IMG/VR virus record: IMGVR_UViG_2713896907_000008
Location: 1 to 33,825 of that record
Length of the DNA stretch: 33,825 nucleotides
Source: a virus
Taxonomy: Duplodnaviria > Heunggongvirae > Uroviricota > Caudoviricetes
Direction: 5' to 3' (one strand)
Within the stretch, counting starts at the first letter, position 1. Each line of letters opens with the position of its first letter. The translations under genes and the position numbers were made by a program. Positions 24,489-33,825 of this stretch are shown here, in pieces. Below the pieces are notes generated by a model. The model ran no database searches, was not told where the DNA came from, and saw only the letters and a list, made by a program, of their open reading frames with translations.

Positions 24489-25550
24489 TTAATATTCAAA
24501 ATTATTTTCTTCAATAGAGAATTCAATCCCTCGGGATAACTTATCAATATTCACATCAAATTCGATATCTGTTAATTCACCATTCTCGATTTCATACATA
24601 ACTTCAATCTCAATATCGAAACTAATCTCTTGAACTTCAGTTCGTGTGGTTGACTCCATTGGAATCATTACTTTATCTTCGCTATCCCAATACCCATTAT
24701 TAAAGTCTGGACCAGAAACAGTAACTTCAAAATCTACAGGAACAGAGAAGGTCGCTAGACAATAATTATTGTTAATCTTAATTATTGATGGTTCAAAGTC
24801 ATCAATATTGACGACTTCAAATGAATCCAATTCAGCGTCTTCCCAAGTTGAAACGTTATATCCATCGGCATCATTGAGTTGGGCAATTACGTCCGCTCTT
24901 ATGTCTTCACGTTTGCTTTCGATAAACTGCATCAATTTATTACTTAATTCGTTTGTATGCGTATTGTATTCACCTAGAAACTTATCAAGTGAATCAACTT
25001 GATGAAGATTGTTTTTACCATCACAATAATTTTTTAAGTCACTATCCTCAGAAATGATATACACATCTTCATCATTAACAAATCGCTCTACCGCAGCTAA
25101 AGTGATTGCATCAGGAAACTCACTCTTTTTCTTATTTTGCCCAAATGGTGGTTCTTTGCCAAAGTATTTATCTAAAATCTCATTAAGATCTATCACTTCT
25201 ATTGGAGCTAATTTGGCGTGACATCCTTTCAAAAAATCATCAAAAACTTTTTGTGCTGCTTCGTGAATTTCATGTTCGTTAAATTGCTGAAAAAAACCAT
25301 GGAGCGGTCCATTATCAATACTATTCAAAAGCCTAGCTTTTCTTTGTACTGTGTTTATAGCCTGCAGAGCATCCTTTATTGATTCCTCTATTTTACCTTT
25401 TACTTCTCTCTCTACAACTGTAGTTGTAATTAAGACTAAATCACCTTTCGCACATAATTCATGGAAAGCTTTAAATGCTACCCCCTCAAAATGAAGACCA
25501 GCCTTTACGTACGTTTGTGTGTCAATAAATACCTTATTTGTTTTAAGCAT
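24489..25550 (-). CDS. cargo protein, 353 aa: PIN-like N-terminal domain plus acidic C-terminal domain of unknown function; candidate defence/abortive-infection nuclease
   Basis: AT-rich relative to flanking phage genes; own AGGA ribosome-binding site and terminator. Candidate PIN acidic residues: D in VFIDTQ, E in REVKGKIEE, D in EFPDAITL, D in IISEDSDL. Confidence 0.6.
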   Translation of the reverse strand: MLKTNKVFIDTQTYVKAGLHFEGVAFKAFHELCAKGDLVLITTTVVEREVKGKIEESIKDALQAINTVQRKARLLNSIDNGPLHGFFQQFNEHEIHEAAQKVFDDFLKGCHAKLAPIEVIDLNEILDKYFGKEPPFGQNKKKSEFPDAITLAAVERFVNDEDVYIISEDSDLKNYCDGKNNLHQVDSLDKFLGEYNTHTNELSNKLMQFIESKREDIRADVIAQLNDADGYNVSTWEDAELDSFEVVNIDDFEPSIIKINNNYCLATFSVPVDFEVTVSGPDFNNGYWDSEDKVMIPMESTTRTEVQEISFDIEIEVMYEIENGELTDIEFDVNIDKLSRGIEFSIEENNFEY

Positions 25551-26074: not shown

Positions 26075-26410
26075 ATGAACAATATTCCCCCTATACCACA
26101 GTTAGGAATTTATGTCTCAAAAATCGATCCCACCCTACGTATCACTGTAACCGATGTTGATATTGTTGATGGTGAGGATGATTCTCCTGATGATGAATTG
26201 TTTTATTTAGTCCACTGGATCGAGGGGGAAGATGAAAGTGATATGACAGCAATGGGATTTGAGCTAGACCCAGTAGAGTGGCAGGCTTTCGTTGAATCTG
26301 AGCAATTAGTGTTTGAGCGTGATCCGTACATGGATTCAATCCCCGAAAATTCAAATTTGGCAAAGATTCGGGATTTTCTCATGAAGACTAAACAGAATGA
26401 TCATTCGTAA
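26075..26410 (+). CDS. hypothetical acidic protein, 111 aa
   Basis: AAAGGAG ribosome-binding site; very Asp/Glu-rich; occupies the position of P2 old/tin between cos and the SOS genes. Confidence 0.55.
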   Translation: MNNIPPIPQLGIYVSKIDPTLRITVTDVDIVDGEDDSPDDELFYLVHWIEGEDESDMTAMGFELDPVEWQAFVESEQLVFERDPYMDSIPENSNLAKIRDFLMKTKQNDHS

Positions 26411-26602: not shown

Positions 26603-26836
26603 TTAATGCAGCCAGCTGTCGTCCTCCCACACCTTCTGCATAATTTTCATCACTTGTTTTCTTTCTTCATCCAGTTGCAGTCCGGTTAGTTCCACACCGT
26701 TAGAGCTACCTTTGCGAATGCGAATTACCGTTTTGGGATACAGGGGGCGCAGATTGCGGTAAAGCTCGGATTCAAGGGCGTCCAGGGTAGACTGGCTAAT
26801 CTTCTGCTCTTTATCGATCATTATTTCAATGCGCAT
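26603..26836 (-). CDS. dinI: DinI-family protein
   Basis: MRIEIMIDKEQ…KIMQKVWEDDSWL matches the DinI pattern; own GAGGTG ribosome-binding site overlapping the upstream stop. Confidence 0.75.
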   Translation of the reverse strand: MRIEIMIDKEQKISQSTLDALESELYRNLRPLYPKTVIRIRKGSSNGVELTGLQLDEERKQVMKIMQKVWEDDSWLH

Positions 26837-26846
26837 AAAAGTCACC

Positions 26847-27035
26847 TCAGCTGATGACATCCATTGAGCGGTTGTATTCGTGGCTTCTGATTTTTGCCAT
26901 AAGTTCATCAGTCAATTCAGAAACCCACTGCAGAGCCAGCCCCTTCTCTTCATCACTACACTCACTAGCCGCTACAAGCTTAAGAAAAAAATCAATGCGC
27001 TGAAGCTTCAAAGACTCCAAAAAATAGTCCTGCAT
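26847..27035 (-). CDS. small protein, possibly the N-terminal part of a Tum-like antirepressor
   Basis: 62-aa ORF with an AGGAGG ribosome-binding site, about 41 bp downstream of a LexA box. Confidence 0.45.
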   Translation of the reverse strand: MQDYFLESLKLQRIDFFLKLVAASECSDEEKGLALQWVSELTDELMAKIRSHEYNRSMDVIS

Positions 27036-27075
27036 CTTTCCTCCTATGACACCAAAACAATACTGTATGCATAAC

Positions 27076-27095
27076 CACTGTTTATATTTACAGTA
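27076..27095. promoter_or_regulatory. LexA (SOS) box
   Basis: CACTGTTTATATTTACAGTA: CTGT-N8-ACAG with an AT-rich spacer, upstream of the minus-strand 62-aa/DinI pair. Confidence 0.7.
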
Positions 27096-32042: not shown

Positions 32043-32561
32043 TCACAGCAAACCGAATGAAGCACCGAGGCCAGTCACGGTATCAACTGCACTCGCCATC
32101 GCAGGATTAGCCTGTAAACGGGCCTGCAATGAAACAGCAGCCAGCGCCATCAGTCGTGTTACAGAGTTAATGCTGCTGATAGCATCACGACGACCGGCAC
32201 TAGTTTTTACATCACCAGATACCGCACCTGCTGCAACACGCCCGATCTCTGCAGTTGCGCTCATGACGTAATGCGGCAGTTTCTCTTTTGCTACCTCATT
32301 AATCGGTACACATGGCAGACAATGAATCTGTGCCAGAAAACCATCTACCAACGTTGAATCTTCAGTCAGATCGGTAAGCAGCCAGATTTCTGGTGCGGTT
32401 AATAAATGAGGTTGAGCTGGGTTCAGCTTGTTCCGCAGAATCTGCACATTCATGCCCGCACGTTCTGCCAGTTGCACCAGGTTGTGGCGCAGTGCGAATG
32501 CACGACAGGCTTCATCAAAATGTGGATGTTTGGAAACTTGGTAATCAAACATAGTCGACAC
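32043..32561 (-). CDS. cII: CII-like regulatory protein (phage 186 CII family)
   Basis: 172-aa ORF starting [23 protein letters not shown]…, matching 186 CII as I recall it. Confidence 0.6.
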
Positions 32562-32584
32562 TCCTCAAGTATCCCAAAATGGAA

Positions 32585-32806
32585 CTAGTTAATACTCAAA
32601 TTGCATTCAGAGAGCGCATCAACGGTCATTGCAGCGATATTGATCATCACCTTTTCTCGCTTTTTATCTTTACGAAGACGATGGCGAATAAGGCGGCCAT
32701 CAGCAAGCATGTCATTGATAGTGTCAATAGATAGCCCAGTCAGTTCGCTGTATTTCTCAATAGAAACAGATGGGACAGCTAAGGTGATTGAAATATGTGG
32801 AGTCAT
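32585..32806 (-). CDS. Apl/Cox-like excisionase and switch regulator
   Basis: First gene of the early operon, divergent from the repressor; small HTH protein; start set at the ATG with a GAGGAA ribosome-binding site. Confidence 0.55.
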   Translation of the reverse strand: MTPHISITLAVPSVSIEKYSELTGLSIDTINDMLADGRLIRHRLRKDKKREKVMINIAAMTVDALSECNLSIN

Positions 32807-32931
32807 GATGCAAGATTCCTCGTTTAACAAGATGTGTGGTAACTGGTGATTAACCTTGTTCAGTTCACTTTTGCACACACTAATTCTTCATTTGAGAAGT
32901 GTCAACAAAAAATCACTCAAAGGCGTAATAG

Positions 32932-33825
32932 ATGAATTTCAAAAGCGGAGGACAAGCAGTCATAACACGTATGCTTGAAGCGTATGGATTCAAGACGCGG
33001 CAAGCTCTATGTGAACAGTTCAATGTATCTGCAAGTACTATGGGAACGCGCTGGATGCGTGACGTATTTCCTGCTGACTGGGTAATTCAGTGTGCAATTG
33101 AAACAGGGGCATCTATCGAATGGCTCTCATTCGGAAAAGGCGTACCATTCCCTCAGAATACAGAGGCACCGGTCATGTCAAAGGCAACTGCACCAAAGAT
33201 TCAGCATGTTCCCCAAATCAATAATCAAGAGAACCCTATTGGGAACTTCCTGAATTTGGATTCAGGCGGGCGTGATGCAATAGACCGGCTAATGAAAGCG
33301 TATGGCTTCAAAACAAGACAAGAACTTGCCGACCATTTGAATGTATCTAAAAGCACCATGGCAAACAGATATTTACGAGACACTTTCCCAGCTGATTGGA
33401 TCATAAAATGCTCGTTGGAAACAGGAAATTCTCTTTTATGGCTAGCCACTGGGCAAGGCAGCAAGCACAGTTCTCTCACAACATTGGTAAAAGAGCTGCC
33501 TAAATTTCATCTCAATGCAGGAAAAATGGTTGAGTGTGGTTCATATATTTTCGATACATCATTTTTACCTGCTAATCTTTCAGCACCAATTGTCATTCAA
33601 GACGGGTTGATGACATACATTTGTGATCAAAACATTACTGATGTATTGGATGGACACTGGCTCATCAATATCGATGAAACCTATTCAATTCGGCATATTA
33701 CAAGACTACCTAAGAAGGTGATAAAAGTATCATCCTCCATAAATAGCTTTGAATGTGGTTTTTCTGATATCAATTTTGTTGCTAGAGTTTATTTATTCAT
33801 TTCCAGCATCAATAAAAGCAATTAA
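32932..33825 (+). CDS. immunity repressor with two tandem CI-type HTH domains and a C-terminal domain of unknown function
   Basis: Residues about 5-70 and 105-170 are about 60% identical repeats (…AYGFKTRQ.L…NVS.STM..R..RD.FPADW.I.C..ETG.S..WL..G.G) resembling the 186 CI N-terminal domain; the stop coincides with the window end. Confidence 0.65.
   Translation: MNFKSGGQAVITRMLEAYGFKTRQALCEQFNVSASTMGTRWMRDVFPADWVIQCAIETGASIEWLSFGKGVPFPQNTEAPVMSKATAPKIQHVPQINNQENPIGNFLNLDSGGRDAIDRLMKAYGFKTRQELADHLNVSKSTMANRYLRDTFPADWIIKCSLETGNSLLWLATGQGSKHSSLTTLVKELPKFHLNAGKMVECGSYIFDTSFLPANLSAPIVIQDGLMTYICDQNITDVLDGHWLINIDETYSIRHITRLPKKVIKVSSSINSFECGFSDINFVARVYLFISSINKSN

Follow-up and report, generated by a model that had tools for sequence, protein, structure and literature searches.

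Few alternatives to the lambda switch have been studied as well as the CI repressor of bacteriophage 186, which assembles into a wheel and for which every model takes one DNA-binding head per subunit. The principle of placing two helix-turn-helix (HTH) domains in one polypeptide works in an engineered single-chain 434 repressor. Natural tandem-XRE proteins (C. difficile phiCDKH01_17, PMC11172241, and Wmk of a Wolbachia prophage) also have two lambda-like HTH domains in one chain. The CI proteins of phage PsP3 and prophage PhiECO3, which are closer to that of 186, have been noted as having 'a longer C-terminal domain' (Nilsson and Haggard-Ljungquist 2011, PMC3448106); the extra length is misattributed there, and a second head is not mentioned. 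A search of the literature found no description or test of a second or tandem HTH domain in a 186-type CI. The subject of this analysis is the cI gene at positions 32932–33825, plus strand, of a 33,825-nucleotide stretch of DNA (IMG/VR record IMGVR_UViG_2713896907_000008), hereafter the window, which is the right-hand end of an Escherichia coli chromosomal segment holding a P2/186-like prophage. The gene product amounts to a whole 186-type CI that carries a further head and a tether at its front. The two-headed CI is a functionally undescribed variant of a well-known repressor, in which the heads would divide the labor: head 1 would read the operators at the lytic promoter pR as pairs, and head 2 would be the retained ancestral head. 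The probability of this modular reading is roughly one half.

The open reading frame (ORF) of cI is complete: it starts with ATG, and the TAA that closes it is also the end of the window. It encodes 297 residues, which are organized into head 1, a linker, head 2, and a 186-type C-terminal domain. Pfam family PF07022 (Phage_CI_repr) matches the protein in two stretches with a total of 197.5 bits (E 3.4e-59), and PF16452 (Phage_CI_C) matches residues 189–287 (E 1.2e-24); an NCBI protein with 98% identity bears the name 'phage repressor protein CI'. Head 1 (residues 6–72, positions 32947–33147) and head 2 (residues 111–177, positions 33262–33462) are five-helix HTH domains, which a domain hidden Markov model (HMM) built here matches at residues 5–72 and 111–177. 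Their predicted recognition helices are residues 34–42 (ASTMGTRWM) and 140–148 (KSTMANRYL), respectively. In a BLASTP comparison of the first 99 residues with the rest of the protein, the two heads align without gaps, with 39 of 70 positions identical (56%, E 3e-32). The linker (residues 73–110, positions 33148–33261) is 38 residues long, disordered, and poorly conserved, and its last ~10 residues (NPIGNFLNLD) are the counterpart of the N-terminal arm of 197/198-residue CI proteins. An in-frame ATG in the linker (Met82), with AGAGG 8 nucleotides upstream (33162–33177), could start a 216-residue single-head isoform made of head 2 and the C-terminal domain; Met82 is retained in proteins P0001 (98% identical) and P0002 (86% identical) and not in P0003.

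The C-terminal domain (residues 189–287, positions 33496–33792) has the oligomerization fold of 186 CI without a peptidase signature. An AlphaFold2 model of the full-length protein, based on 45 homologues, contains five-helix bundles at residues 7–67 and 113–173 and a beta-rich domain at residues 186–291. The predicted local distance difference test score (pLDDT) of linker residues 75–105 is below 50, and the predicted template modeling score (pTM) of the full-length protein is 0.53. Foldseek superimposes the C-terminal domain on the oligomerization domain of 186 CI (2FKD_A) with a template modeling (TM) score of 0.94 and a root-mean-square deviation (rmsd) of 1.4 Å, and head 2 superimposes on the N-terminal domain of 186 CI (2FJR) with an rmsd of 1.7 Å over 72 columns. 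The alignment of residues 114–294 with 186 CI is collinear over the full length of the latter (residues 8–189 of 2FJR). The S24 peptidase family (PF00717) gave no Pfam match in the protein at E-values up to 1, and the resemblance of the C-terminal domain to LexA is a remote one at the level of the fold, with 6–16% identity. These results agree with a preliminary description of the gene, made from the letters of the DNA, which counted two CI-type HTH domains in the protein as opposed to a single one in 186 CI, put their identity at ~60%, close to the 56% measured here, and noted no convincing LexA-like Ser/Lys dyad; its absence is normal for a 186-type CI.

The two-head design of CI is genuine and conserved, and it is widespread among the P2/186-like prophages of enterobacteria. 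The window gene was found in 31 of 5,426 complete E. coli genomes, which had been assembled independently, at DNA identities of 87–99.9% (one genome at 99.9%, five at 95–99%, and the rest at 87–89%), and at least 80% of the query is covered in 18 of these 31. According to the domain HMM, two heads are present in 46 of the 120 best homologue clusters, well above what chance would give; the 46 represent Escherichia, Salmonella, Klebsiella, Citrobacter, Enterobacter, Kosakonia, and Edwardsiella. When a protein library clustered at 50% identity was searched, 32 of the 149 head matches were two-headed, and 14 of the 32 had the full-length arrangement of head, head, and C-terminal domain; some of the two-headed proteins of this library are from Pantoea, Hafnia, Citrobacter, and Shewanella. 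The isolated Salmonella phage PsP3 has a 286-residue CI with identical Pfam architecture, the prophage CI of the reference uropathogenic strain CFT073 is two-headed and 45% identical to the window protein, and Klebsiella phages such as 4LV2017 also carry a two-headed CI. A scan of IMG/VR with proteins of the PsP3 clade gave 439 matching stretches, the best 80 of which all cover both heads. In a GTDB scan of species-representative genomes, two of 80 loci were double-head and nearly all others single-head. The preliminary description had called the repressor design unusual, which holds relative to 186; however, the design is not rare. About a fifth of the head-bearing clusters at 50% identity have two heads, including those of PsP3, CFT073, and Klebsiella phages of carbapenemase-producing clones. 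Four cluster representatives of 340–997 residues (P0195, P0226, P0231, and P0251) contain 4–7 HTH stretches according to phmmer, copy numbers that are unconfirmed; with the domain HMM built here, P0195 has just two matches, both weak and partial, and P0226, P0231, and P0251 have no match.

Both heads have been under strong purifying selection. In pairwise comparisons of the window gene with two relatives, the ratio of nonsynonymous to synonymous substitution rates (dN/dS) is 0.02–0.06 for head 1 and 0.00–0.16 for head 2, with dS of the two heads at 0.2–0.5, and the corresponding ratios are 0.31–0.43 for the linker and 0.27–0.32 for the C-terminal domain. Therefore, both heads are maintained by selection.

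The two heads have different relatives. Head 1 is 85% identical to the sole head of 206-residue CI proteins (P0108–P0119), and its identity to the first head of other double-head lineages does not exceed 63%. For head 2, the identity to the only head of 197-residue CI proteins is 81%, and head 2 together with the C-terminal domain is ~68% identical to complete 198-residue CI proteins, from which its recognition helix differs by one residue (KSTMANRYL versus KSTLANRYL). In alignments, the window protein matches the 206-residue type from Met1 through 'WLSFGKG', and from approximately residue 100 to residue 297 it matches a complete CI of the 197/198-residue type, N-terminal arm included. The DNA upstream of the window cI resembles that of a 206-residue-type phage. 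A neighbor-joining tree of heads (68 columns, without bootstrap) places head 2 domains among single heads and head 1 domains in at least four separate places. The gene is a fusion or module swap, because head 1 is 85% identical to the 206-residue CI as opposed to 56% to head 2, and the rest of the protein is a complete 197/198-residue-type CI. Judged by these alignments, the pR operators and head of one immunity type are fused, in one reading frame, with the whole CI of another. The preliminary description had spoken of an internally duplicated domain, and the two heads are indeed there; however, a simple local tandem duplication is rejected for this gene, since the single heads of another lineage resemble head 1 more closely than head 2 does. 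The possibility that the linker is former promoter DNA that became read through was addressed with a blastn search of 33100–33300 against the upstream regions of relatives, which gave nothing meaningful.

The association of head 1 with pR is seen in the PsP3 clade, for which 80 viral contigs were compared and representatives of ten head 1 types were examined. These contigs differ very little in the DNA on the left side of the pR −10 element. The recognition helix of head 2 is nearly invariant, being SSGTISTWVRRDFF in 55 of 79 sequences, and the variants differ at 1–3 positions. The helices of head 1 form at least six types, and seven of the ten type representatives have a near-perfect inverted repeat of their own at or beside the pR −35 element, for example TTAATTTTGC..GCAAAAATTAA, AATTTTG-N8-CAAAATT, TTTTCATAT-N6-ATATGAAAA, and AATCGCA-AA-TGCGATT. 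Within the PsP3 clade, the recognition helices have mean identities of 0.41 (head 1) and 0.73 (head 2), and the values in the clade of the window are 0.69 and 0.81, respectively; head 2 is more conserved than head 1 in these two enterobacterial clades, and three Shewanella proteins show no difference between the heads. No conserved palindrome is shared inside the cI genes of the PsP3 clade. Symmetric, type-specific operator-like repeats that vary with head 1 suggest that head 1 is the specificity head and that, like the head of 186 CI, it acts as a symmetric pair.

Operators in the window were assigned as candidates by comparison with annotated 186 and relatives, on the basis of position, symmetry, and conservation, and generic scans of 32300–33825 for repeats and promoters detected no clear operators or promoters. 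The putative pR, read from the sequence, is on the minus strand at 32877–32905, with a −35 element TTGACA (32900–32905), a 17-nucleotide spacer, and a −10 element TAGTGT (32877–32882). Its layout matches that of the annotated 186 pR, also in its leftward direction, and its −35 element is conserved in relatives; a consensus promoter scanner at its threshold did not detect it. The candidate central operator Ob, ATTCTTCATTTGAGAAGT, covers 18 bp of the pR spacer (32883–32900), which is the position of the central operator of 186. Ob is identical in the relative L001 and homologous to ACTTTCCATTTGGAAAGT, a near-perfect palindrome at the same place in the pR spacer of a 206-residue-type phage. Candidate operator Oa (AGTTCAC..., 32862–32879), at which the block conserved between the window and L001 begins, would be 20 bp from Ob. 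Candidate operator Oc (ATCACTCAAAGGCG, 32912–32928), 29 bp from Ob and just before the start of cI, fits the position of the third site of relatives. By a hand count, the 20/29-bp spacing of candidate sites is common to single- and double-head relatives. In seven loci of the two-headed 310-residue type, and in CFT073 as an eighth, the arms of the pattern xTCAy-N5-GGAGAwT are conserved and its 5-bp center varies, a combination that reads as an operator signature. In 197/198-residue-type phages, a second strong palindromic operator is located over cI codons 5–10 (KYPIGD / KYPSEI; L006 1297–1373 and L008 1422–1498); therefore, the peptide of the N-terminal arm and the DNA of the operator constrain each other.

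The architecture, its conservation and chimeric origin, the selection on both heads, and the co-variation of head 1 with the DNA at pR are observed, whereas the DNA targets of each head, the state of oligomerization, and the part played by head 2 are inferred. In the proposed mechanism, the C-terminal domain would oligomerize as in 186 CI, head 2 would occupy the place of the single 186 head, and head 1 would be an extra head on a flexible 38-residue tether, gained together with its cognate pR operators. Pairs of head 1 from different subunits would read the roughly palindromic operators at pR and turn off lytic transcription, and head 1 would thereby set the immunity specificity. Head 2, as the retained ancestral head, would be functional, and it would most likely bind DNA at conserved or secondary sites, with candidates inside cI (33230–33247) and between genes D and ogr (3149–3165). 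Bound there, head 2 would contribute avidity, looping, or wrapping. Induction would proceed via a LexA-controlled antirepressor of the Tum type, not by self-cleavage.

The candidate head 2 site inside cI, ~340 bp from pR, is the operator-like sequence AGAACCCTATTGGGAACT (33230–33247) in the stretch that encodes the arm preceding head 2. When the 33.8-kb window was scored with a matrix of operators from 197/198-residue-type phages (GTACCCAAATGGGTAC and relatives), the best match was at this site, with 17.6 bits as opposed to 11.3 for the next one, and the same position tops the matrix matches in the two-headed loci L001, L099, L015, and L097. The site could be a target of head 2 comparable to the distal operator FL of 186, which is in the linker-coding part of the 186 cI, ~300 bp from pR. 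The second candidate is the perfect palindrome TTCTCC-GCAAT-GGAGAA (3149–3165) between the stop codon of D and the promoter of ogr; the CI sites of 186 at pB are in the corresponding place. The D–ogr region is ~97% shared with phages whose sole or second head has a helix of the SKST[LM]ANRYLRD type, and the palindrome could be a CI operator or the terminator of D. The pattern of the pR central operator, TTCTNC-N4-GAGAA, is expected to have ~0.06 matches in the window by chance; its sole other match, TTCTTCAATAGAGAA at 24507–24521, is at the 3′ end of a gene for a PIN_12-domain protein and is possibly an additional CI site.

Several observations weigh against the modular reading. Phage Kp4845-2 has a recognition helix identical to that of head 2 of the window protein (SKSTMANRYLRD) and quite different pR operators. 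The site can thus not be predicted from the sequence of the helix, and the assignment of a head 2 target from the recognition helix was dropped. The site inside cI is not the top match in four loci of the 310-residue type (L093–L096), and it may equally be conserved solely via the peptide arm. The window Ob is weakly symmetric, with 5 of 8 arm pairs (ATTCTTCA..TGAGAAGT), and in the 310-residue type the main operator is a hybrid throughout (TTCAC / TTCTC). Among the types of the PsP3 clade, the sole repeat found in type A, which is PsP3's own, runs into the start of cI, no repeat was found in types B2 and D2, and type D has a 21-bp direct repeat, the second copy of which contains a perfect 10-bp palindrome. 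The co-variation of head 1 with pR could partly reflect their inheritance as one block, as they are adjacent. Finally, an AlphaFold2 model of residues 1–180 has a pTM of 0.78 despite 29 disordered residues, with pLDDT of 92–97 in both heads, and arithmetic on the definition of pTM suggests that such a value is hardly reachable without a confident placement of head 1 relative to head 2.

The high pTM fits the alternative that survives best at least as well as it fits separate pairs. In this alternative, head 1 would pack on head 2 within its own chain, and together they would read both half-sites of an operator. Each subunit would then be a complete operator-binding unit, and the dimer or wheel formed by the C-terminal domains would have twice the units of 186 CI. 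The pTM of the full-length model is compatible with this arrangement, and linkers of 25–50 residues are long enough for it. The asymmetric hybrid operators would also suit two different heads, as in xTCAy-N5-GGAGAwT of the eight loci of the 310-residue type, ATTCAC-N6-GAGAAT of L099, and ATTCTTCA / ACTTCTCA of the window. However, single-head 186 CI binds two operator types and a hybrid, so hybrids do not require two heads. Furthermore, heads 1 and 2 of the PsP3 clade are ~41% identical, yet near-perfect inverted repeats are present in seven of its ten types; two unlike heads are not expected to read identical arms, and the palindromic operators thus argue against the reading of both arms by one chain. 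The contact in the AlphaFold2 model, with its 45 sequences, may be the homodimer interface of single heads projected on paralogous domains. Foldseek searches of PDB and BFVD gave single-head matches or badly superposed tandem proteins only, and no solved chain in PDB shows a packed head pair. The idea that one chain reads both half-sites, which the preliminary description had put forward, is therefore not favored, given palindromes that vary with head 1; the pTM of 0.78 keeps it alive as a rather unlikely alternative.

It is improbable that head 2 has no specific DNA binding and serves as a conserved protein-interaction module, for example for docking of Tum, as a spacer, or as a dimer contact, which would allow head 1 cassettes to be swapped without loss of inducibility. 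The constancy of head 2 while head 1 and the operators vary would fit such a role, as would the tum-like genes here and in PsP3, and no operator of head 2 could be defined. However, in its predicted recognition helix and its entire HTH, head 2 matches the conservation of single-head relatives, in which the domain certainly binds DNA. Slightly more improbable again is a bi-specific immunity, in which head 1 would control the phage's own switch and head 2 would keep the specificity of the 197/198-residue type and repress superinfecting phages of that type. The similarity of head 2 and the C-terminal domain to 198-residue CI proteins, with a helix one residue off, speaks for it, as do the very strong purifying selection on head 2 and the lack of a strong 198-type operator at the window's own pR. 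However, Kp4845-2 combines the same helix with different operators, and retained specificity is not assured; moreover, the exclusion of one foreign type would not obviously fix head 2 across lineages and genera. The assembly duplication or mis-called fusion of two adjacent genes against which the preliminary description had advised a check has practically no chance of being correct, even though Met82 with its AGAGG could in principle start a separate single-head product, because the copies are just 56% identical in protein, the ORF is uninterrupted in 31 complete E. coli genomes, PsP3, CFT073, and many genera, and dN/dS indicates selection over the whole reading frame.

The likely route of SOS induction is a split tum-like locus on the minus strand at 26603–27093. 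It comprises a 62-residue tumA-like ORF (26847–27035), an overlapping DinI/tumB-like ORF in another frame (26603–26908; DinI Pfam E 1.2e-22), and, ahead of them, a canonical LexA box CTGT-N8-ACAG (27078–27093). PsP3 is annotated with the same split into tumA and tumB. In phage 186, induction is due to the antirepressor Tum, which is under the control of LexA (PMC7708051), and a literature search for the CI domain that Tum contacts found no report.

If head 1 is exchangeable and head 2 is a conserved anchor, the diversification of immunity types in P2/186-like phages would be explained, and the two-headed CI would offer a natural starting point for the engineering of repressors that have two specificities. 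It is conceivable, as a tentative generalization, that two-headed CI proteins are an immunity-swapping device, in which a new head 1 and its pR operators are recombined in and the old head 2 and C-terminal domain serve the rest. Head 2 could then serve conserved distal operators, such as that of the late-activator promoter, or the antirepressor. A lineage with such a device could change its immunity type or hold two specificities without breaking the circuit.

The genes around cI form a 186-type switch neighborhood, with apl-, cII-, and fil-like genes divergently upstream and, in a prophage of E. coli AMSHJX01 that is 99.9% identical, int downstream, in agreement with the earlier identification of the product as an immunity repressor. 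The window begins with host chromosome (~1–2800), which includes a glutaredoxin-like ORF (1–234), a ybjC-like membrane ORF (290–667, minus strand), and a ybjL-like transporter gene (936–2621). The prophage starts with ogr (2857–3108, minus strand; Pfam Ogr_Delta). The structural and early genes are on the minus strand and end with fil (PF10893), cII (PF06892), and a 73-residue apl/cox-like gene. The cII-like gene (Phage_CP76, E 3.4e-42) is at 32043–32561, minus strand. The apl/cox-like ORF, which is the first lytic gene (32585–32806, minus strand), has no Pfam match in the window, and the matching 73-residue gene of relatives has a weak match to Phage_Cox.

In the AMSHJX01 prophage, cI is followed by genes for an AAA family ATPase, a DUF4276 protein, and an integrase. 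The ATPase and DUF4276 pair is located just past the end of the window (L012 5535–7282) and presumably resembles the PARIS anti-phage system. Other relatives have different genes in the slot between cI and int: GmrSD_N and HEPN in L096, and unknown proteins in L001 and L095. By its gene content, the interval between cI and int appears to behave as a variable cargo slot co-transcribed with cI. The P2-like prophage of CFT073 and the AMSHJX01 prophage occupy the same chromosomal site, next to rcdA. Elsewhere in the window, a 353-residue PIN_12 protein (24489–25550, minus strand), which has a weak DUF7339 match and whose gene adjoins the portal gene, and a 111-residue ORF (26075–26410, plus strand), which has no Pfam match, are likely accessory cargo.

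The closest of the known systems is 186 CI (2FJR, 2FKD), which has the same Pfam families, PF07022 and PF16452, and likewise no self-cleavage domain. The likeness extends to the genes apl, cII, and fil, to int in close relatives, and to a central operator, a candidate in the window, in the pR spacer. The window CI differs from 186 CI by the extra HTH domain and the 38-residue disordered linker at its N-terminus; the two proteins are ~33% identical, and their operators differ. The 186 repressor forms a 14-mer, a heptamer of dimers arranged as a DNA-wrapping wheel, and uses the distal sites FL and FR and control of pB. The three pR operators of 186 are approximately two turns apart and its distal sites are ~300 bp away; their counterparts in the window are candidates. 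The CI proteins of PsP3 (286 residues) and of the CFT073 prophage PhiECO3 have the same architecture of two heads and a C-terminal domain; however, PsP3 CI belongs to a separate clade and has a shorter linker and different heads. Among single-head repressors, the 206-residue CI (for example of Escherichia phage ESSI2_ev129) resembles the module of head 1 and pR DNA, and the 197/198-residue CI (for example of Klebsiella phage KP12) resembles the module of arm, head 2, and C-terminal domain; the central operators of the two types, ACTTTCCATTTGGAAAGT and GTACCCAAATGGGTAC, are near-perfect palindromes. The self-cleaving repressors LexA and lambda CI have an S24 domain with a Ser-Lys dyad, in contrast to the window CI, in which no S24 match was found. 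The single-chain 434 construct and the tandem-XRE proteins are unrelated in sequence to the window CI and are without the 186-type oligomerization domain. By contrast with these single-chain systems, the evidence here favors the pairing of head 1 across subunits.

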